A stretch of DNA of 64,000 nucleotides, from positions 15,337 to 79,336 of the forward strand of contig JALSLY010000069.1 of NCBI GenBank assembly GCA_026988035.1. The letters run 5' to 3'. The position numbers were made by a program, and so were the translations under genes. Numbering within the stretch: the first letter of the stretch is position 1; each line of letters opens with the position of its first letter. The notes beneath the pieces were generated by a model, which saw nothing but the letters and a program-made list of their open reading frames with translations, did no database searches and was not told the DNA's origin. Shown here piece after piece: positions 13,742-53,530 of the stretch. This DNA is from Thermotogota bacterium. Its GTDB lineage: Bacteria; Thermotogota; Thermotogae; Mesoaciditogales; Mesoaciditogaceae.

Positions 13742-13852
13742 TCATGATAATTGTGGTTTTGTGTACTTAATTCTAAAATATCGTGTTTTTTACAAAGGCT
13801 CAGTTCCACTTTTCTTCATTTTGAAAAGTTCCACTCATTATGAATGACTCAG

Positions 13853-14515
13853 ATTGTGCAACGAACATTACAAGGCGCGAAGGCGCTGGCGGTAGCCGAG
13901 TGGGATTGTGCGGTGAGTGGAGTTGCCTGTGGCAACATCTTTTCCACTTCCCCGACCAAAGCGGCAGCTGCGACCAATGTTTTCCCACTTTCATGTCTGA
14001 GGCGGTAGCCGAGTGAGGGACCATCGAAGATAGTGGGTGGTGTGATTTGTTAAAGATTACACACCCCGGCCTTCGGCCACCCCTCTTGATAGAGGGGATT
14101 AAAAGCAAAAGTAGTCCTTCCTTGAGGAGCAGGATTGCACAGTGAGTGGAGTTGCCTGTGGCAACATCTTTTCCACTTCCGCAACCAAAGCGGTAGTTGC
14201 GACCAATGTTCTCCTGCTTTCATGTCCGAGGCGGTAGCCAAGTGGGATTGTGCGGTGCACAATGTTTTCCCACTTCCATGTCCGAGGCGGTAGCCGAATG
14301 GGGGACCGCGTAGCGGTGGAAGGTAGTCCTTCCTTGAGGAAGGTGGCGGCGAAGCCGACGGAAGGTGTTAGTATGCAGCGTGCCTCACGATGTGAACTGG
14401 AAGATGGATAAGCGAGTGAATCGGGCTTGATAAGACTTCGAAAAAAAATCCTTTATCGCTTGAAAAGCGATGTTTATTTGATAAATACTCATAGGTTGTA
14501 AAGTTGACGCACAAC
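13853..14515 (+). repeat. dispersed non-coding MITE-like element, copy A (longest; a diverged right arm may extend to about 14550)
   Basis: The left end AGATTGTGCAACGAACATTACAAGG and right end GATAAATACTCATAGGTTGTAAAGTTGACGCACAAC are shared with the loci at 31880-32010 and 50933-51369. The interior is G+C-rich with duplicated ~120-nt modules. Confidence 0.7.
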
Positions 14516-14596
14516 TTAAATAAATGAGTTTTCAGAGAACGTGAGTGCGCCTAATGTGTGATAATAAAAGGAAATTGCTGTACGGGAGGAGTATTG

Positions 14597-31742: not shown

Positions 31743-31879
31743 CTCACTGGTTCATCGGTGTTTCCATTTTGTTTGGCTACTTTGAGAGCTTCTATGTAAC
31801 ACCTTCCACCGCTACGCGGTCTTCCTCTCAACTGTCGCTTGCTCCTATGGTAAAAGCATTTTTGACTCAGTATTACTCT

Positions 31880-32010
31880 ACTCAGATTGTGCACGAACAT
31901 TACAAGGCGATTGAAAACTATAAAAAAAGAGGTTTTTCACATCTATCGCTTGAAAAGCGATGTTTACTTGATAAATACTCATAGGTTGTAAAGTTGACGC
32001 ACAACGTGAG
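31880..32010 (+). repeat. dispersed non-coding MITE-like element, copy B (minimal, about 131 nt)
   Basis: It begins ACTCAGATTGTGCACGAACATTACAAGG and ends TTGTAAAGTTGACGCACAACGTGAG. The two ends are imperfect inverted repeats. TTACTCT occurs directly on both flanks (31873-31879 and 32011-32017). Confidence 0.7.
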
Positions 32011-32133
32011 TTACTCTATTCTTTTTGAATATGATGATGCATACGACTTTTTGTAGTAAAATGATATAAGGATATGAATGGTTGTGAATGGATAGCTGTA
32101 AATTCAATTTTCTCATTGTTAGGAGGCTAAAAA

Positions 32134-44605: not shown

Positions 44606-47600
44606 ATGAAATCAAATCGTTTCCTGTTCTTTTTAGCAGTCTTAATTGCGATGGCAATGATTCTATCTGGATGCTTTTTATTCCCAAAGATCGGAGTACT
44701 TGTGAAACCAACTTTAATTTCACCACCTAATAAAGCAACTGGGATTTCAACAAATGTTGTCCTTTTATGGAAAGAAAAGGGTTCGTTTAAAAATCTTAAT
44801 TACCGTCTTTTTTTCGGTACTTCAAACCCTCCCGCTTATCAAAAAACAGTTGATACTACTCAAACAATTGAAAACAATCTCAAGTATTCCACAACATACT
44901 TTTGGCGAGTAGCCGCTGTCAACAAATCAGGAAAGGTTGCAACAAGTGACATTTGGCATTTTACAACGATGGCGTTGCCAACACCATCGACTCCGATTTT
45001 AAGCGTCACTTCAGTCTCAACAGATTCTGTTTCCTTACAATGGACCAAATCAGCAAATGCCGCCTCAATAACTTTGTATTCTGTGACATCAAATCAATTC
45101 AGCCAGGTGGTTACACTTTCTGGAACTACAACATCTTATACTTTGACGAATCTCGAACCAGCAACTGTTTATAAATTCTTTGTTGTGGCTTCAAACACAT
45201 CTGGAAAAGCGACATCGAATACAGTTACTGCAACTACTCAATCCATTCCAGCTCCTCCAAAACCGCCTCTTCCATCTACACCTGTTTTGAAAGTCACATC
45301 AATTTCAACTGATTCTGTTTCTTTGGGGTGGAGCAAATCGACAAACGCCTCAGCGATAGATGTTTATTCAGCGACATCAAATAAATTTAGTCAAATTGCA
45401 TCACTTTCTCCGAATGCGACGTCTTATATGGCAAATAATCTAAAGCCATCAACAACGTACAAGTTCTTCGTCGTTGCGACCAACCCATCAGGTAAAGCCA
45501 CATCAAACACGGTGACCGCGACAACTCAAAGCCTTCCCCCTTCAACACCGATTTTAAGTGTTGGATCAGTTTCAACAAACACAATAACTTTGAAATGGAC
45601 ACAGTCCAAAAATTCAAACTTGATAACGATTTATCAGGCAACCTCTGTTAACTTTTCTTCCATTGCAACGCTAACTGGCATAGCAACATCTTACAAAGTA
45701 AATGATTTGAAAGCGTTCACCACTTACAAATTCTTTGTAGTCGCATCAAATGAAACTGGACGTGCAACTTCAAACACAGTTGTCGCGACAACACTAAAAA
45801 TTGTTATTAAACCAAATCCACCAAAGATTTTCGTAAATTCACCAAACACTTATTCAACCCTTTTAACGTGGTCTGAAAGTTCAACAAATGTCGTAGGATT
45901 TCACATATGGAGACGTTCAAATTCAAATGAAGCCTATACACTTATAGCTTCTGTGAGTGAAAACAAGAACTCTTACACGGATATTGTTAATCCAGGTCAT
46001 ACTTATTCCTATATGGTGAGCGCGTACAATTCTGCTGGTCAATCTTTTTCGAAATCTGTATCTATCTTTGTTGGCCAGAACTATTTCCCCATGAAGACAA
46101 CGAGCTCACTTGTTACTGTAAATGCACAGCCTAGCGTTCAGCCTCAATCAACAAAAGTGCTTGGAAGCAATTCTTATTCGCTTTTGAACTTTATAAAAAC
46201 CTTTAAAGCAGCCGCTTCATCAGTTCAACTGATTCCGACAAATGAGGTTATAACCTATCAAAAATTGACGTCAAACGGGACCACAACCTACACGGTGAAC
46301 ATATCTTACGCGTTCGCTGGACAGCCCAACGTTGAACTCCATCTTTCCTTTTTGGTTGGGGATGAAAAAGTATATCTTCAAAATTTTGCATCTTACCCAA
46401 TTCTACTTCTCAACAGTATCTATGGCAACAAGCCATTATCTAAAACTCATGTGCTTTCGAATTCTTATTCGAGAAATGTGACTTACATATCTCAAATGAC
46501 TTTTGGAAACCACACATATAACAACGTTCTCAAAGTTACTTTGACAGGCCCTACCATGACACTCGTTTTTTATCTTGCTCCCAACGAAGGTTTAATGAGA
46601 GTTGACGTGCTGATTGATAGTTCCACAGCATTCTCTTATACTGTAACATCCACATCCACAACGATACCACCTGTTTATCCACAAACACCGGTTATAGTGA
46701 GTCCGGCCGCTAATTCAACCGTACCTTCAACGTTCACACTTAAATTTAGCGGAGATTCAAGCACTTACACCATTTATTTGAACTCACAAACGCTGATCTC
46801 AACATCATCGACAATTGTGGAAATTGGACCACTAAGCGATGGAACTTACACCTTATCTATAAAAGCCGCTAATTCTTATGACCTCGAAACTCTAAGTCAA
46901 GCTGTAAATTTCACAGTCCAAGGTGGATGGACGGCTACTCCAACATATGTCGTTGGAGATTTCACGAATTGGGCGACGAATTCAAACTATGAGATGAGCT
47001 ACGATCCTGTGAATAAAACTTATTCACTCACCACGAGTGTCCCGGCCCCAGCTTCCACATTGACTTACGGCATAAATCGCTACTTGATAGAACAAGTGTA
47101 CAAAGGTGAAATTGTAAAATATGGCTACCAGCCAATTCCCATAACAAGTGAAAATGTAACATTTTACTTCAATCAGTCTATGGCGAAGCCTTTCACATCT
47201 GATGGTATAGGAGATACGTCGAAGGAAAATCGAAGTTGGTACTTTGCCTCAGACATAAATGGTTGGACCTTTTCACAAATGCAAGCATCGGGCACGACAT
47301 TTGTCGCAACTGTGGCAACAAACGGTGCTTTTGAGCCGGGAACGTACGGATTCAAAATAACTCCACAAGCCGCTTTTTCAACTACCCCTGCGAGCTTGAT
47401 ATCTTATTACTTCAACGGATCTTACGGGGCGTATTACTTGCCGAATGGAAGTTTCTCGATTGCTACACCATCAAACGAAATCGTTGTGAAGTTCAACATT
47501 TTGAATTCAAAAATCACCTTCGAAGCGACAAATGTAACTTCGGTTTATCTAAGGAGCAGTTTTAGCAGCTGGTCGGCTAATATGCCAGACTATAAATTCA

Positions 47601-50600
47601 AATACGATCCGTTCACCGGTATCTATTCTTTGACCACAGAAGTACCATCCACAACTGGTCAGCAAGAATATAAAGTAGTTTACAACGGCGCATGGTATGG
47701 AGGTAACAACATACCAGTTAAATCTGGTACCGTAACGTTCTACTTTGATCCATCAATTGCTACAGATCCAAGCAAAGCTGTTGGTATAGGTGACACTTCA
47801 AAAGAATCGATGACGTGGTATTACGCAGGAGATTTAGGTGAAACGTGGAGCAAACCTCAGCAAATGCAATATATAGGTAACGGCACTTTCGTTGCTACAG
47901 AAACTGGTAATTTTAGTGTCGGCAATTACTACTTTAAAATTACACCCAACGTCAGTTGGGCATCTTCGCCATACTATTACAATGGAAGCATTTGGGGAAA
48001 CTTCAGTAGTAGTAGCAATGCGGGCTCTCTTCATCTTTCAACTGCGGCATCAAAAGTGGTGGTTGAATTCAACGTCCTGAAAAGCCTTGTGACACTTCAT
48101 CCTGTGATTTCTCCAACATATTACGTTGCCGGAAATTTCGACGGTTGGCAAAACGTTGTTGGCAATTCTAATTACAAAATGTCGCCTAATTCTTCCGGCA
48201 TTTACACGCTTAGCATGACATTACCCTCCACGACTGGTCAATACCAGTACAAGATAGTGGAATGGACGGGAACTCAAACCGTATGGTATGGAGGACCTGG
48301 TTCTAATGCGAATTATGGAAACATACCGGTTAAATCGGGAAACGTCACATTTTATTTTGATCCATCTATTGCAAGTGGTTCTCCATCTGGAGGAAACTCA
48401 GATGTAGGCATCGGCGATACGACAAAAGAGACTATGAAGTGGTACTTCGCTGGTGACATAAACAACTGGAGATTTGCAACGATGACATATGTTGGCAACG
48501 GCACTTTCGCCGCAACTATAACAAGGCCCGCGACGGATGATTCTGCCGGTGCTTATGGATTCAAAATAACACCTCAATCTACATGGAGCACACAACCTGC
48601 GAGTTTGACGCAGTATTACTTCAACGGTGGCTACGGTGGCTACTCTTCTCCCAATAACGGTACTGTAGTAGTTCCTCAGGCAACTACTGTTGTCGTTGAT
48701 TTCAACGTTTTAAACAGCTCAGTTAGTGCTAAAGCCGCCAAAATTCAGACGCTTCATCAGGTCATAATGGCGTATTTGGATTCGATGGATGAAATTCACG
48801 CAACACTTAACTCTACTGTTAATACTTCAAATCTTTCGCAGTTCAAATTTAGCGTTAACGGACACAACACTCCCATTTCTTCTGTTGTCGATGCAAATAC
48901 TGGATTGTCCGGAATCTCGAATTACATCACGATAAATCTTTCTACGCCTTTGAACCTATCTGATGTGGCAAGTTCTATGGTTCTAACTATAAATAACTTT
49001 AGCCCGGCTACAGTTTACGCCAGATACGCTCTTAACAATTCTGCTTTTCATTACGATGGCCAGCTTGGCGCGATTTACTCGCCTTACCAAACGACGTTTA
49101 AAGTGTGGTCACCTGTATCAGATCAAGTCGATCTTTTGCTTTTTAAAAACGCAAATGACACAACACCATACGCGACATACGCCATGACAAGAAATTCTCA
49201 AGGCGTATGGTCGACAAGCGTGATGGGAGATTTGAACGGAGTGTACTATGAATATTCTTATCACAGATATGGCGAATGGATAAGTGCGCCTGACATATAT
49301 TCCAAAGCCGCGAACGCCGATAACACTAAATCCATGGTGATCGATCTTTCGCAAACAGATCCATCTGGATGGAATGTTGATACAGCTCCATTCCCGAATA
49401 ACATGGTTGATGCGATCATATATGAATTGCACGTCCAGGACTTCACGGACAATCCCAACTCTGGAGTTTCACCTCAGTATCAAGGCACTTACATGGGATT
49501 CACGCAAACAGGCACAACTTACGATGGAATGCCAACGGGAGTAGATCATCTTGCTCAACTTGGAGTTAACTACGTGCAGCTTCTGCCGATAGAAGATTAT
49601 GAGGATCCACAAAATCCAGGATATAACTGGGGATACGTTCCCTACCTTTACATGGTGCCGGAGTCCAAATATTCCACAACTCCAAACGATCCGGCAAATA
49701 CAATTAATGAAGTCAAACAGATGATCGAGTCGCTTCATTCAAAAGGAATAGGTGTGATTTTAGACATATCTTTCAGCCACACATCGTACGTGACAACTCC
49801 ATACACAGCCGCAGTTCCATACTATTACTACAATTACAACGAGTATGGACAGAAAACGAATTACTCTGGAGTTGGAAATGATTTGGCAACCGGAAATTAC
49901 ATGGTTGAGAAGCTGATCGTCGACACGTTGAAATATTGGATGACGCAGTACCATATTTCAGGATTCAGATTTGACCAAATGTATCTGTACGATCCACAAA
50001 CCATCCAAGATATAGTACAAACACTTCGTGCATTGGATCCCGGTGTACTTCTCTATGGAGAGCCATGGAAAGCGAGTGGATACAAATTTACGTATTACGA
50101 TCAACGTGGAATGGATCTTGGTGTCTTTAACGGCTATTTCAGAGACGCGATGATAGGAACAGCTGACAATCCGACAGCAATGGGTTTTGTAAACGGCAAC
50201 GCTACAAGTACAAGTGTTCAAAGTGATATAAAGTCTGGAATTGTGGGAAGCGTTCCTTTTGAGACTCTTCCAAATACATTCGCTGCTGAACCTGATGAAA
50301 GTATAAATTATTCCACATGTCATGATAACTACACACTTTGGGACAAAATAACAATGGCTCAGCCAACTTGGAGCGCATCTGAAGACATCGCAGCTCAAAA
50401 ACTTGCAGGAGCAATTGTGATGCTCTCACAAGGAGTCGCCTTTATGCAAGGTGGAGCGGAATTTGCACGAACGAAAGATGGAAATGGAAATTCCTATAAT
50501 GTCCAGAGTCCGAACGAATTCGATTGGTCAAGACTCACACAATTTGCAACTGTTGATAGCTACTACCAAGGGCTGATAGCTATAAGAAAGGCTCATCCAG

Positions 50601-50884
50601 CTTTCAGGATGACATCATCTCAAGATATAGATGATAATTTGATTTTTCTTTCTGGGCTTGCCAATGGCGTGATTGGATATGAAATAAACGGAGGCTCTGT
50701 TGGTGATTCATGGTCTGACATCGTGGTTTACTTTAACGCTAATACAACAGCAAAAACTGTAACCTTACCAACTGGGACATGGAATATAGCTGTGAATGGA
50801 GCGATGGCGTCAACGAGCTCAATTGGCACAGCTTCAGGAACGATTCAAATTGTCCCATTGAGTGCCTACGTGTTCTATAAGTGA
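44606..50884 (+). CDS. giant cell-surface lipoprotein pullulanase (GH13 type I pullulanase catalytic core with FN3 and carbohydrate-binding-like modules)
   Basis: There is a signal peptide with the lipobox LSGC (Cys23). About five FN3-like modules follow, then three ~200-aa repeated modules (YVVGDFTNW / YVAGNFDGW). A CBM48-like segment (LGAIYSPYQTTFKVWSP) follows. The GH13 regions are YNWGYVPYLYM, GIGVILDISFSHT, GFRFDQM, YGEPW and YSTCHDN. Confidence 0.85.
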   Translation: MKSNRFLFFLAVLIAMAMILSGCFLFPKIGVLVKPTLISPPNKATGISTNVVLLWKEKGSFKNLNYRLFFGTSNPPAYQKTVDTTQTIENNLKYSTTYFWRVAAVNKSGKVATSDIWHFTTMALPTPSTPILSVTSVSTDSVSLQWTKSANAASITLYSVTSNQFSQVVTLSGTTTSYTLTNLEPATVYKFFVVASNTSGKATSNTVTATTQSIPAPPKPPLPSTPVLKVTSISTDSVSLGWSKSTNASAIDVYSATSNKFSQIASLSPNATSYMANNLKPSTTYKFFVVATNPSGKATSNTVTATTQSLPPSTPILSVGSVSTNTITLKWTQSKNSNLITIYQATSVNFSSIATLTGIATSYKVNDLKAFTTYKFFVVASNETGRATSNTVVATTLKIVIKPNPPKIFVNSPNTYSTLLTWSESSTNVVGFHIWRRSNSNEAYTLIASVSENKNSYTDIVNPGHTYSYMVSAYNSAGQSFSKSVSIFVGQNYFPMKTTSSLVTVNAQPSVQPQSTKVLGSNSYSLLNFIKTFKAAASSVQLIPTNEVITYQKLTSNGTTTYTVNISYAFAGQPNVELHLSFLVGDEKVYLQNFASYPILLLNSIYGNKPLSKTHVLSNSYSRNVTYISQMTFGNHTYNNVLKVTLTGPTMTLVFYLAPNEGLMRVDVLIDSSTAFSYTVTSTSTTIPPVYPQTPVIVSPAANSTVPSTFTLKFSGDSSTYTIYLNSQTLISTSSTIVEIGPLSDGTYTLSIKAANSYDLETLSQAVNFTVQGGWTATPTYVVGDFTNWATNSNYEMSYDPVNKTYSLTTSVPAPASTLTYGINRYLIEQVYKGEIVKYGYQPIPITSENVTFYFNQSMAKPFTSDGIGDTSKENRSWYFASDINGWTFSQMQASGTTFVATVATNGAFEPGTYGFKITPQAAFSTTPASLISYYFNGSYGAYYLPNGSFSIATPSNEIVVKFNILNSKITFEATNVTSVYLRSSFSSWSANMPDYKFKYDPFTGIYSLTTEVPSTTGQQEYKVVYNGAWYGGNNIPVKSGTVTFYFDPSIATDPSKAVGIGDTSKESMTWYYAGDLGETWSKPQQMQYIGNGTFVATETGNFSVGNYYFKITPNVSWASSPYYYNGSIWGNFSSSSNAGSLHLSTAASKVVVEFNVLKSLVTLHPVISPTYYVAGNFDGWQNVVGNSNYKMSPNSSGIYTLSMTLPSTTGQYQYKIVEWTGTQTVWYGGPGSNANYGNIPVKSGNVTFYFDPSIASGSPSGGNSDVGIGDTTKETMKWYFAGDINNWRFATMTYVGNGTFAATITRPATDDSAGAYGFKITPQSTWSTQPASLTQYYFNGGYGGYSSPNNGTVVVPQATTVVVDFNVLNSSVSAKAAKIQTLHQVIMAYLDSMDEIHATLNSTVNTSNLSQFKFSVNGHNTPISSVVDANTGLSGISNYITINLSTPLNLSDVASSMVLTINNFSPATVYARYALNNSAFHYDGQLGAIYSPYQTTFKVWSPVSDQVDLLLFKNANDTTPYATYAMTRNSQGVWSTSVMGDLNGVYYEYSYHRYGEWISAPDIYSKAANADNTKSMVIDLSQTDPSGWNVDTAPFPNNMVDAIIYELHVQDFTDNPNSGVSPQYQGTYMGFTQTGTTYDGMPTGVDHLAQLGVNYVQLLPIEDYEDPQNPGYNWGYVPYLYMVPESKYSTTPNDPANTINEVKQMIESLHSKGIGVILDISFSHTSYVTTPYTAAVPYYYYNYNEYGQKTNYSGVGNDLATGNYMVEKLIVDTLKYWMTQYHISGFRFDQMYLYDPQTIQDIVQTLRALDPGVLLYGEPWKASGYKFTYYDQRGMDLGVFNGYFRDAMIGTADNPTAMGFVNGNATSTSVQSDIKSGIVGSVPFETLPNTFAAEPDESINYSTCHDNYTLWDKITMAQPTWSASEDIAAQKLAGAIVMLSQGVAFMQGGAEFARTKDGNGNSYNVQSPNEFDWSRLTQFATVDSYYQGLIAIRKAHPAFRMTSSQDIDDNLIFLSGLANGVIGYEINGGSVGDSWSDIVVYFNANTTAKTVTLPTGTWNIAVNGAMASTSSIGTASGTIQIVPLSAYVFYK
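44984..45793 (+). repeat. three tandem paralogous FN3-module repeats inside the pullulanase gene
   Basis: The protein repeats STP(I/V)L.V.S(V/I)ST(D/N).(V/I)(S/T)L.W..S.N......Y.ATS..FS..A.L......Y....L...T.YKFFVVA.N..G.ATSNTV.ATT occur three times (about aa 127-212, 224-309 and 313-396). Confidence 0.8.
46921..48735 (+). repeat. three tandem ~600-nt modules (each a pair of carbohydrate-binding-like beta-domains) inside the pullulanase gene
   Basis: Three protein patterns recur three times: Y(V/L)..(D/S)F..W...(S/P)(N/D)Y.(M/F).YD/P....YSLT...PS; VTFYF(N/D)(Q/P)S.A...S..(V/I)GIGDT(S/T)KE...WY(F/Y)A(S/G)D; and Y.FKITP(Q/N)..(F/W)(S/A)(T/S).P. Confidence 0.6.
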
Positions 50885-50922: not shown

Positions 50923-50932
50923 ACTCGCTCAA

Positions 50933-51369
50933 ATTGTGCACAAACATTACAAAACGATCCAAACTATAAAGAAAGAGATTTTTCACATTCCCTCGAAGTT
51001 TTCATCAAGACATATGAGCTCGCCATCTGAAAGCTCACAAGATGTAATGTCTTTCCCACTTCCATGACCGTTCTACTGTATTTTGTAAGGAGAGGAAATG
51101 CCAGAGCGGGATTGCGTAGTACGCAATATCTTTCCCGCTTTTCTGACCGAAACGAAGTTGAGAGCATCATCACTTCCTCTTTGTGTCTGAGGTGGCAACC
51201 GAGTAGTAGGCACAAGTGGTAGCCAAGAAGGGGACCGCGTAGCGGTGGAAGGTGTTAGATATGCAGCGTGCTTTACACAGAATCTTTGACCATAACGTCA
51301 TTCCGGACTACAGTTGGTTCTGGATGTTTATTCGATAAATACTCATGGGTTATAAAGTTGACGCACGAC
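50933..51369 (+). repeat. dispersed non-coding MITE-like element, copy C (about 437 nt, more diverged)
   Basis: The left end is ATTGTGCACAAACATTACAAAACGATCCAAACTATAAAGAAAGAGATTTTTCACAT (collinear with copy B). The interior shares GGGGACCGCGTAGCGGTGGAAGGTGTTAGATATGCAGCGTGC with copy A. The right end is GATAAATACTCATGGGTTATAAAGTTGACGCACGAC. Confidence 0.65.
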
Positions 51370-51388
51370 GTGGGATGAAAGATAGGAA

Positions 51389-52081
51389 TTAACGTGTTAG
51401 TTTGTTGTAAAGTAGTTGAAAGGCGTGAACAGCCACTCTTTCTATTTCAGCAACCGTTAGCTTCAACGGCTCGATCATCATTAAAGGCATAATGATGATT
51501 AGATTAAAAAGTGCTTGTATTGAAAAACCGTAAACAACAAAAACCGCAAGCGAATTCAACGCTATGATCACTGCAAAAAATTCAAATCCTGCACTGTTAG
51601 AACGCGGGCGAAAGTCGAAAACCTTTAAAGTCAGATAGGCAATTTTTGAAAATACTGCGATAACAAAGGCACAAAACAGGAAAACCAAGAGCACCCACCA
51701 ATCACGAAACAGCGGTGGTATTTCAAATCCCACAATCCATCCAAGTTTGTAAAGAATCAAAACCAGCGACCAAAAGAGTGGCCCTTCAGCTAAAAAGATC
51801 GACAATCCATTTATCTTCATCATGATCGAGATCGACATTGGAACGATAAAGAGAATGAAAAACAGTGATCCACCTAAATCATTAAATGCAAAGATTATCA
51901 CGGAAGCCACCACAACGATTCTTAACCATTCAGAACGTGATTGATTCATGGCATACACAAGTGGAAACACAGCTAAGTAACTTATGGCCGTTCCAATCCC
52001 GTAGATCATTTGAAATGTATAGATAAGAGCAGTTAAAGCCCCCAAAATGGCACTTTCAGCATTTTGCCGTGCTTTAGTCAT
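51389..52081 (-). CDS. hypothetical integral membrane protein (about 6 TM segments)
   Basis: 230-aa ORF, strongly hydrophobic throughout. I recognise no catalytic motif. Confidence 0.65.
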   Translation of the reverse strand: MTKARQNAESAILGALTALIYTFQMIYGIGTAISYLAVFPLVYAMNQSRSEWLRIVVVASVIIFAFNDLGGSLFFILFIVPMSISIMMKINGLSIFLAEGPLFWSLVLILYKLGWIVGFEIPPLFRDWWVLLVFLFCAFVIAVFSKIAYLTLKVFDFRPRSNSAGFEFFAVIIALNSLAVFVVYGFSIQALFNLIIIMPLMMIEPLKLTVAEIERVAVHAFQLLYNKLTR

Positions 52082-52130
52082 CGAAGGTCGCCACCTTCCC
52101 CGCTCATAACATCAATACAAAGCTCTGCAC

Positions 52131-52394
52131 TTAACCATTCAATTCTTTTCTAAGCCCCTTTTGTGATGTGAAACCTGTTTTTTTCTGGATATTCTTGTGT
52201 TTTACTGCGGAACTTCTTTTCTCGATTGGACTCACAGCGAGTTTTAAAATATCTTCTGGAACTTTTGAAAGATTTTCCAAGTACATTTCAAGGGCTTTGC
52301 GCATAAGATAACTTTTGGGCCTGTCAAGTTTCTGGGCATATTTTTCAAGTTTCCTCTCAAGTTTTTCTGGCAATCTAAGAGATATCAATTTCAT
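52131..52394 (-). CDS. ribbon-helix-helix (CopG/MetJ-type) DNA-binding protein
   Basis: MKLISLRLPEKLERKLEKYAQKLDRPKSYLMRKALEMYLE is a textbook RHH strand-helix-helix N-terminus, followed by a basic tail. Confidence 0.75.
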   Translation of the reverse strand: MKLISLRLPEKLERKLEKYAQKLDRPKSYLMRKALEMYLENLSKVPEDILKLAVSPIEKRSSAVKHKNIQKKTGFTSQKGLRKELNG

Positions 52395-52509
52395 AGTATC
52401 ACCTCGTATTACATTATATCACAAAGCAAAAATTCATCTGCAAACAAAAAACGTTTAACGTTCCATTAACTTCCCACCCGTATAATTTTGTACAAACAAC
52501 AAATAATGG

Positions 52510-52524
52510 TGGTGGAGTCCACCA
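52510..52524. promoter_or_regulatory. 7-1-7 palindrome in the divergent intergenic region (candidate operator)
   Basis: TGGTGGA-G-TCCACCA read directly. It lies about 50 nt upstream of the first gene of the membrane complex and about 115 nt upstream of the divergent RHH gene. Confidence 0.35.
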
Positions 52525-52576
52525 GAAAGCTTTTTAGCCAATGACTCCTACCCATCCCACGGATAGGAGGTTTTTT

Positions 52577-53530
52577 ATGCTGTTAATTTTTCTAAGCATT
52601 TTGCAGTTGTTCTATGTGCTACTGCTTTCACCGTTAATCTTCGGAATCTTTTCAAAATTCGAAGAGAGAATCGAATCTAAAAAAGGACCAAGTATTTTTC
52701 AACCTTACTACGATCTTTTCAAACTTTTTAGAAAACAAGTCGTCGTCCCTGAGGTGTCGTCTCCGTTTTTTCATGTGGTGCCTTACGTAGAATTTGCATT
52801 GTACTCGCTTTTGACGTTAGTCCTACCAATAATAACGGCCTTTCCACTTGAATTTGGGCCAACGGTGGATTTCATCGGTGGAGGTTTGATCTTTGGAGCA
52901 GCAGCGCTGTTGAAGAAAATAGCATCTTTGGACAGTCGAAGCAATTATTCGCATCTTGGAGTTTCTCGAGCAGCAAGCATGGGAGCATTGGCAGAACCAA
53001 TAACGGTTTTAATATTCATTATGTTAGGCGTTATCTCAAAGACAAATAACCCTTACATCATAAACAACGTACTTCAAACATCATCAAGTTGGTATCTTTC
53101 GTTGACACACTGGTTTGTTGCCGCTGCATTTTTCATGATCTTGCTTGTTGAAACCGGAAAACTTCCAATAGAACATCATTCCACAGCTGAGCTTGGTATG
53201 ATTGATCAGGCAATGGATCTGGAGTACTCAGGAATGGACCTCGCCTTCTACAAATGGGGAGGATATATAAAGAAATTTTTGCTCATGAGTGTGTTTGTGA
53301 ACGTGTATACGGTGCCGTTTTTCGTACCTATGAAGTATAATCTGTCTTCGATTGCCATATATACAGGAATTCACTTTTTAAAGCTTCTCGGTCTTGTGAT
53401 TAGTATGGGGCTATTAGAGGAAAGTATTTCAAAATTCAGACTCTTCAAAAATTTCGATTACATGGCTATCTCCTTCTCTTTGGCCTTTCTGAGTTTCTTG
53501 GCGTTTTACACAACGAATGGAGGTTTCTAA
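52577..53530 (+). CDS. NuoH / HycD / HyfC-like membrane subunit
   Basis: A polytopic membrane protein of about 317 aa. The ATG at 52577 lies 7 nt after GGAGG. The charged loop motifs (PIEHHSTAELGMIDQAMDLEYSG) are typical of the NuoH/HycD quinone-chamber subunit family. Confidence 0.75.
   Translation: MLLIFLSILQLFYVLLLSPLIFGIFSKFEERIESKKGPSIFQPYYDLFKLFRKQVVVPEVSSPFFHVVPYVEFALYSLLTLVLPIITAFPLEFGPTVDFIGGGLIFGAAALLKKIASLDSRSNYSHLGVSRAASMGALAEPITVLIFIMLGVISKTNNPYIINNVLQTSSSWYLSLTHWFVAAAFFMILLVETGKLPIEHHSTAELGMIDQAMDLEYSGMDLAFYKWGGYIKKFLLMSVFVNVYTVPFFVPMKYNLSSIAIYTGIHFLKLLGLVISMGLLEESISKFRLFKNFDYMAISFSLAFLSFLAFYTTNGGF

Follow-up and report, generated by a model that had tools for sequence, protein, structure and literature searches.

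A probable family of miniature inverted-repeat transposable elements in intergenic regions of a Mesoaciditogaceae (Thermotogota) genome

The contig JALSLY010000069.1 (assembly GCA_026988035.1) belongs to an uncultured, heat-loving bacterium of the Mesoaciditogaceae, and a 64,000-nt stretch of it, here called the window, contains three intergenic regions occupied by copies (A, B, and C) of one dispersed, non-coding repeat. Copy A has a gene for a pyridoxal phosphate-dependent enzyme on one side and a methyltransferase gene on the other. Copy B follows an FGGY sugar kinase gene and precedes an epimerase-MgsA-Lgt-PolA operon, ~50 nt upstream of the conserved TGATATAAG promoter block of this operon. 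Copy C lies directly past the terminator of a gene for a 2092-aa pullulanase-like protein and has a convergent membrane-protein gene on its other side. Two additional copies, D and E, were found on other contigs. The neighboring genes are ordinary housekeeping or transport genes that are functionally unrelated to one another. The repeat is probably a DNA transposon that is specific to this lineage, non-autonomous, and bounded by terminal inverted repeats (TIRs), resembling the MITEs (miniature transposable elements with inverted repeats) of other prokaryotes. The features of the window copies, including the target-site duplications (TSDs) of copy B, are as follows; coordinates are window positions unless a contig is named.

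13847-14546 (alternative right end 14529), + strand: copy A, long and partly degraded, 683-700 nt
13847-13879, + strand: left TIR and truncated left module of copy A, with a 1-nt insertion (GCAACG vs GCACG)
13880-14425, + strand: GC-rich interior of copy A, an array of hairpin units that includes a duplication spaced by 229 nt and blocks in common with C and D
14426-14517, + strand: right module of copy A; the hairpin TATCGCTTGAAAAGCGATG occupies 14454-14472, and the right TIR ~14490-14515
14516-14546, + strand: disrupted right tip of copy A, aligned as TTAAATAAATGAGTTTTCAGAGA followed by ACGTGAGT at 14539-14546
31874-31879, no strand assigned: left TSD of copy B, TACTCT
31880-32011, + strand: copy B, intact short form, 132 nt
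31880-31905, + strand: left TIR arm of copy B, 26 nt, 77% complementary to 31986-32011 (20/27 by position)
31944-31962, + strand: internal hairpin TATCGCTTGAAAAGCGATG with a T-rich run behind it, conserved in A, B, D, E, and a variant copy of a relative (contig L093), and missing from C
31986-32011, + strand: right TIR arm of copy B, containing an outward TTGACG whose last base lies 12 nt from the tip
32012-32017, no strand assigned: right TSD of copy B, TACTCT
50927-51375, + strand: copy C, long form with degraded tips, 449 nt

The original prediction described three intergenic copies with common termini and a single orientation, and direct reading and a repeat search bore this out. The 33-nt right-end string GATAAATACTCATAGGTTGTAAAGTTGACGCAC, for which zero occurrences were expected in shuffles, is present on the + strand at 14480-14512 and 31970-32002 with no mismatches and at 51334-51366 with two; a repeat finder delimited a 62-nt family at 14454-14515, 31944-32005, and 51308-51369. 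The left ends read ACTCAGATTGTGCAACGAACATTACAAGG from 13847, ACTCAGATTGTGCACGAACATTACAAGG from 31880, and GCTCAAATTGTGCACAAACATTACAAAA from 50927, and can be aligned from (A/G)CTCA(G/A)ATTGTGCAC onward, with flanks that diverge immediately upstream. These left-end sequences had been read correctly, but the starts given for A and C (13853 and 50933) were ~6 nt off. Lengths of ~131, 437, and 663 nt had been proposed, and measurement from tip to tip gives the 132, 449, and 683-700 nt listed above. In copy A, ACGTGAGT does lie where it had been placed; its displacement may reflect the ~23-nt insertion that was suggested or another rearrangement of the tip.

Sequence identity among the copies is concentrated in two end modules. 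Right modules share 95-98% identity among A, B, D, and E, and that of C (51323-51372) is 90-95% identical to the others; the right module of A, which scored as terminator-like, is 94.6-98.4% identical to those of B, D, and E. The left modules of B, C, and D share 85-92% identity across 62-94 nt (91.5% between D and C at 50927-51018). Copy A retains 31 nt of this module, 96.8% identical to B by BLAST, and in the alignment its likeness to the other copies ends past ACAAGGCG. The tip and the hairpin are the most conserved parts of the family.

The termini are not limited to the three loci of the window: a metagenome scan located two additional copies that belong to this genome, and one relative holds a diverged copy. 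Copy D, 528 nt long and with both ends present, is situated between divergent YitT-like and ABC-F genes, and copy E consists of a right module without a left end, between a cold-shock gene and a gene for a 560-aa protein and antisense to both. Because an identical ABC-F protein to that adjacent to D is encoded on contigs from the ENA and Logan samples that also contain the window, D and E were assigned to the same genome or population. The five copies are located at unrelated loci within ~117 kb of this genome, which has a GC content of 40%, and searches of 20 kb of window flanks and of 22 kb surrounding D turned up no others. Logan short-read contigs of the host end inside A, B, and D, as is expected of genomic repeats. 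Chance or an assembly artefact as the source of the repeats was excluded by the shuffle statistics and by three independent assemblies.

The element ends are imperfect inverted repeats of 26-27 nt; the left one reads ACTCAGATTGTGCAC... and the right one ...GCGCACAAC(G/T)TGAGT, with terminal strings ACTCAGATTGTGC... and ...GCACAAC(G/T)TGAGT and a TIR that begins ACTCAG. The 20 of 27 complementary positions previously counted by hand in the arms of B were confirmed. The arms of D, which are exactly terminal, also pair at 20/27 (21/32), and an inverted-repeat tool reported 34 nt at 79% for this copy, the match being lengthened by a palindromic target. In comparisons with 2000 shuffles, in which offsets were searched too, the value of B was reached once and that of D never, arguing that this complementarity exceeds chance. 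The arms of copy C (16/27) were not significant in the same test, and the tip of A failed it with either candidate end. The distance between the arms ranges from 80 to 476 nt.

Examination of the flanks revealed TSDs at B and D that the original prediction had missed. Copy B is bordered by the hexamer TACTCT and copy D by TTAAA on both flanks; the calculated probability of a chance match at a fixed junction in DNA of 40% GC is ~3e-4 over six bases and 1e-3 over five. At A and C, the tips of which are degraded, no TSD was present at any plausible boundary.

Mobility of the element is indicated by an empty site, found exactly at copy B, in related species. The closest relative found, represented by contig L099 (Logan SRR18012667), has an epimerase with 91% aa and 86% nt identity and keeps the FGGY-epimerase gene order. 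Its FGGY-epimerase spacer is 247 nt long, vs 391 nt in the window; once copy B (132 nt) and a single TACTCT are taken out of the latter, 253 nt remain, and these are collinear with L099 over their full length at 69% identity. In a three-way alignment the gap coincides exactly with copy B. The target region of L099 has diverged and reads TCATTCTACTCT, in which the orthologue of the duplicated hexamer is CATTCT or TACTCT. Two other relatives, L094 (88%) and L100 (85%), also lack copy B; the genes upstream differ from those of the window, and the promoter block CTTTTTGTAGTAAAATGATATAAGG is kept in all three. More distantly, MgsA of the window is 71-76% identical to its counterparts in Mesoaciditoga and Athalassotoga metagenome-assembled genomes, where the epimerase-MgsA-Lgt-PolA-...-MutS operon is syntenic and is preceded by a short, element-free spacer with a TGGTATAAT promoter; the MgsA identity and the synteny place the host in the Mesoaciditogaceae. 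Given the empty site in three relatives and the TSD, copy B is apparently a lineage-specific insertion accompanied by target duplication. For copy D, the corresponding comparison met diverged gene order (L093) or a diverged spacer sequence (L092).

The contig L093 (ENA sample ERZ27248471), whose ABC-F and epimerase are 77% and 88% identical to those of the host, begins within a diverged short-form copy at ~20-112 that has the same hairpin (TATCGCTTGCAAAGCGAT) and tip (GTTGACACAACCCTTGAGT), and it carries a fragment of internal modules at 1024-1106. The diverged short copy indicates that the family is older than the split of these species, and its retained hairpin and tip are in line with constraint on the ends.

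The imperfect TIRs, the 5-6-bp TSDs of the intact copies, the decay of tips and TSDs in older copies, the lack of coding capacity, the unrelated intergenic sites, the empty orthologous site, and the confinement to one lineage together make a MITE-like transposon the probable identity of the family. Prokaryotic MITEs have been described as non-coding elements of ~70-500 bp that have TIRs of ~4-30 bp, flanking direct repeats, and dispersed copies (PMC10969869, PMC3733652). Copies B (132 nt), C (449 nt), and D (528 nt) conform in size, while A exceeds the usual range. TIRs and TSDs are found in B and D, dispersion is seen in all five copies, and a filled and an empty site are available for B.

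These same features bear on whether the family might instead be a mosaic of palindromic modules, like repetitive extragenic palindromes (REPs) and bacterial interspersed mosaic elements (BIMEs), spread by recombination or by an HUH tyrosine transposase (the REP-associated RAYT or the TIR-associated TIRYT), with the left and right modules being two of several. The composition of the copies is indeed modular: copy E has the right module only, the fragment at L093 1024-1106 has internal modules only, and solo modules are present at 31797-31821, L085 2950-2991, and L099 1913-1956. Interior hairpins with compensatory changes and a nearby GGCGGTAGCC motif fit as well, and TIR families linked to tyrosine transposases have been described (PMC3733652). 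HUH transposition, however, makes no target duplication, whereas B and D have one, and the unit that is missing in relatives is the whole element from TIR to TIR plus one TSD. REPs and BIMEs are recognized by a 20-40-nt palindrome, a GTAG/CGTC tag, the absence of a TSD, and a RAYT; the widely separated arms and the TSDs depart from this pattern, no RAYT gene was seen at any inspected locus, and the interior hairpin units resemble REPs in their hairpins. Such a mosaic is quite improbable.

With respect to coding capacity, the original prediction of no transposase and no genuine open reading frames (ORFs) holds. ORFs within the copies are no longer than 102 aa; a search of 5.8 billion proteins returned no homologue of them, nor any match to a 1645-aa concatenated six-frame translation of the five copies. 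Neither the window and its flanks nor the loci of D, E, and the relatives yielded a transposase. One rival reading takes the copies to be in-situ remnants of full-length insertion sequences (ISs), each having lost its transposase gene by internal deletion on site, with no transposition of the short forms as such. The retention of both ends and the TSD in B and D, length differences through different internal deletions, and the low copy number so far would suit such remnants. Yet copies C and D have a common non-coding backbone of ~450-530 nt with no trace of a transposase ORF, so the non-coding form predates their divergence. Moreover, a B-like short form exists in another species too, and right modules as alike as those of A, B, D, and E (95-98% identity) are in keeping with a non-coding master copy that was amplified recently. 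On this evidence, on-site decay of complete ISs is highly improbable.

Database searches returned no known relative of the family. As had been predicted, Rfam gave nothing on the copies, copy A being without a match even at an E-value of 10, and the D and E loci gave tRNAs only. A scan of 185,579 GTDB species genomes with the pattern AAATACTCATNGGTTNTAAAGTTGACGCA produced no match, implying that the family is confined to a lineage without a representative among the genomes scanned. Viral contigs and a plasmid collection likewise yielded no match. Profiles of the left and right modules were searched with nhmmer against 80 MgsA loci (1.3 Mb, mostly from other phyla), the ±10-kb flanks of the window, and the relatives' loci, and recovered only the known copies and the L093 variant. 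No MITE from Thermotogota was found in the open-access literature searched. The absence of a known IS or MITE counterpart is thus based on Rfam, the GTDB-wide pattern scan, the plasmid collection, and the literature search. A tRNA-derived origin, as in short interspersed nuclear elements, and a tandem array were also considered and rejected, as no tRNA and no tandem repeat were found.

The differences in length among the copies reflect their interiors, which had been called variable. The variation in length is real, but the content is not arbitrary and consists of collinear remnants of a longer ancestor built of GC-rich hairpin units. Copies C and D are collinear over the ~450-530-nt backbone, and several of the same blocks occur in A in the same order. 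In copy B, the left module is joined at ...TTTTTCACATC straight to the right-module hairpin TATCGCTTGAAAAGCGATG. From this joint and the collinear backbone of C and D, the long form appears to be ancestral and B a derivative of it by internal deletion. The interiors of the long copies contain 50-58% GC, vs 33-40% around that of A, while the end modules and copy B are AT-rich. Hairpin units are located at 13880-14425, 51040-51310, and 9460-9800 of L090, the contig of the window genome that carries D, and within ~117 kb of the host genome they are found almost only inside the TIR elements. One unit has a bipartite stem of ~15 bp followed by ...GAGGCGGTAGCCGAGTGGG; for five to six of its base pairs, the three copies compared differ on both sides of the stem, indicating that the hairpin structure has been maintained. 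A second interior block shows two compensatory pairs (GGCC/GGCC vs GCCT/AGGC).

This structural conservation raises the question of whether the copies are structured non-coding RNA genes or cis-regulatory leaders, the ends forming a closing stem and the GC-rich interior a functional RNA. Apart from the compensatory pairs, the elevated GC content in the 40% GC genome of a thermophile, folds that beat shuffles with z of -2.7 to -4.2, and the location of A, B, and D upstream of co-oriented genes would be in keeping with an RNA. Nevertheless, there is no Rfam match, the best-preserved copy, B, is devoid of the entire GC-rich interior, and no consistent promoter was found. Changes in the arms of C break predicted pairs with no compensation. 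Copies C and E have no co-oriented downstream gene, and where downstream genes exist, they are unrelated and have their own TGnTATAAT promoters outside the element. Copy B is, in addition, missing from the leader of the same operon in three relatives. The context, too, is a poor fit for a cis-regulator, with C and E opposite convergent genes and no functional relation among the flanking genes. For an RNA gene or leader as the primary identity of the family, the likelihood is therefore very small.

A narrower proposal, that the element supplies the promoter or leader of adjoining genes, was rejected, as these genes keep extended -10 promoters outside it, relatives do not have it, and C and E are oriented toward convergent genes. 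The outward TTGACG of the right TIR can form putative hybrid promoters with -10-like boxes in the flank. The candidate boxes are TTGACG-17-TATTCT in B, which spans the junction of element and flank, and TTGACG-16-AATAAT in D. The conserved hairpin with its T-run could act as a weak terminator.

Interior modules also occur alone. Solo GC-rich modules outside TIR elements were observed in the window at 31797-31821 (- strand, just upstream of B) and at the positions in L099 and L085 given above, and one of them is an inverted GGGACCGCGTAGCGGTGGAAGGTGTTA. The module at 31797-31821 resembles the result of a deletion between two ACCTTCC repeats. At the orthologous position, L099 has another combination of modules, with 44 nt that are 100% identical to 14327-14370 of copy A and inverted. 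In contig L092 (Logan SRR18012667), a conserved ABC-F ATPase gene contains a 66-nt in-frame insertion at ~1337-1402 (protein P0002, aa 391-412) consisting of the interior hairpin unit of A, C, and D (GAGTGGGATTCCC-TGAT-GGGGAAT..TTCCACTT); the orthologues of the window genome (L090) and L093 have no such insertion, for which the evidence is one short contig. In L093, the fragment at 1024-1106 adjoins a thiamine pyrophosphate riboswitch (1209-1316, + strand) upstream of a gene for an ABC-transporter binding protein. A CCGGATCAGG-containing module resembled the sequence beside this fragment, but that sequence is the genuine riboswitch, and a link between it and the element was discarded.

A more elaborate interpretation, which is speculative and rather unlikely, holds that the long form is no mere decayed remnant but a mobile carrier of an array of GC-rich bipartite hairpins (GAGYRGGATTGYGY-loop-RCRCAAT...TCCYRCTT), that the hairpins are under selection, and that single units are independently mobile, even in frame into the ABC-F gene of a sister species. 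Such a two-tier repeat system would combine a TIR transposon with a structured module resembling REPs or Rickettsia palindromic elements (RPEs) and functional at the RNA or DNA level, a combination for which the chances likewise seem slim. If it were true, the modules might stabilize or terminate transcripts at high temperature or serve as a protein-binding site.

The probable history of the family under the MITE-like interpretation can be outlined as follows. A DDE-type transposase encoded elsewhere would bind both TIRs, make a cut with a stagger of 5-6 bp at AT-rich intergenic targets, and insert the element there, with repair of the gaps yielding the target duplication. The ancestral non-coding form would have measured ~450-530 nt and resembled D and C, with an interior of GC-rich hairpin units. 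Copy B and the short copy in L093 would be internal-deletion derivatives that kept both ends, and A and C would be older copies in which tips and duplications have decayed.

Several observations weigh against this interpretation. A TSD is present in only two of the four two-ended copies, its length is unequal (6 and 5 bp), and the target of D is itself palindromic (TATTTAAAATA), making the duplication of D less clean. The DNA inspected, ~117 kb from this genome and ~80 kb from close relatives, contained no autonomous IS with the same TIRs and a transposase. A JGI assembly that is apparently from the same sample contained only two matches to the pattern, so the copy number may be modest, short of the tens to hundreds that successful MITEs typically reach. 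The interior of the long copies is GC-rich and structurally constrained, unlike the AT-rich classical MITEs (PMC10969869), AT-richness being a typical rather than a required feature. Finally, the empty-site comparison is made between species, and its alternative is a precise deletion, either three times or once in a common ancestor.

Comparison with described repeats places the family within a familiar range of architectures. Correia elements (CREE/NEMIS) of Neisseria are non-coding, ~100-155 bp long, and bounded by imperfect TIRs of ~26 bp; they contain outward promoter elements, and their transcripts can fold into long hairpins (PMC10969869). The layout of copy B is very similar, with its 132 nt, 26-27-nt TIRs, outward TTGACG in the right arm, and an intergenic position, often upstream of genes in this family as in theirs. 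The two differ in that Correia elements duplicate TA, whereas 5-6 bp (TACTCT, TTAAA) are duplicated here, and they have no sequence similarity and belong to different phyla. The long forms with GC-rich hairpin arrays have no Correia counterpart, and promoter activity in the present family is a prediction. Enterobacterial ERIC/IRU sequences and the BOX elements of Streptococcus pneumoniae are likewise non-coding and intergenic and have partly complementary end modules (see also PMC10969869). They form size classes, as seen here, ERIC by internal blocks and BOX by the number of internal units (boxA, repeated boxB, boxC). Neither is defined by clear target duplications, in contrast to the TSDs and empty site described above, and no similarity was detected by Rfam or BLAST.

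RPEs are small palindromic repeats that occur between genes and in frame within protein genes (PMC10969869, PMC3733652). Only the interior hairpin unit, and not the TIR element, is comparable to them, through the 66-nt in-frame insertion in the L092 ABC-F gene. This unit, at ~45-70 nt, is GC-rich and comes from another phylum, and the likeness concerns one in-frame case on one short Logan contig.

An autonomous IS encodes its own transposase between the TIRs, and no ORF of the copies has a homologue. The Tn3-derived inverted-repeat miniature elements (TIMEs) have a TIR of ~38 bp that starts with GGGG and a 5-bp TSD. The TIR of the present family starts with ACTCAG and spans 26-27 nt, and its TSD is 5-6 bp. 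The repeats are a new family of a well-known kind of element.

The family explains why short-read assemblies break at these spots in this lineage and warns against annotating the three intergenic regions as genes or regulatory RNAs. If it is indeed MITE-like, it would document recent transposon activity in an early-branching lineage of Thermotogota and offer a marker for typing strains and species of uncultured Mesoaciditogaceae. The insertion of B would aim a -35-like box at the promoter of the epimerase-MgsA-Lgt-PolA operon, ~50 nt away. The GC-rich hairpin units and the in-frame ABC-F copy are the more unusual part of the system.

Other features of the window were noted in the vicinity of copy C. 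The pullulanase-like protein is encoded at 44606-50884 (+ strand) and contains fn3, X25, CBM48, alpha-amylase, and pullulanase C-terminal domains; in the ENA assembly, the 5' part of this gene is broken at ~45187-45227, which suggests internal repeats. The only Rfam match in the window is a fluoride riboswitch (RF01734) at 52499-52557 (+ strand), which scores 37 bits (threshold, 34). Rather than preceding a gene of the crcB type, this riboswitch extends into the 5' end of the longest ORF there (52541-53530), which is NADH-dehydrogenase-subunit-like and is the first of a Complex-I/antiporter-like cluster. At 51389-52394 (- strand), the gene that converges on copy C encodes a 230-aa multi-pass membrane protein with no Pfam family, the exact sequence of which is absent from the gene-position index; it is located downstream of a gene for an 87-aa ribbon-helix-helix (CopG-like) protein.

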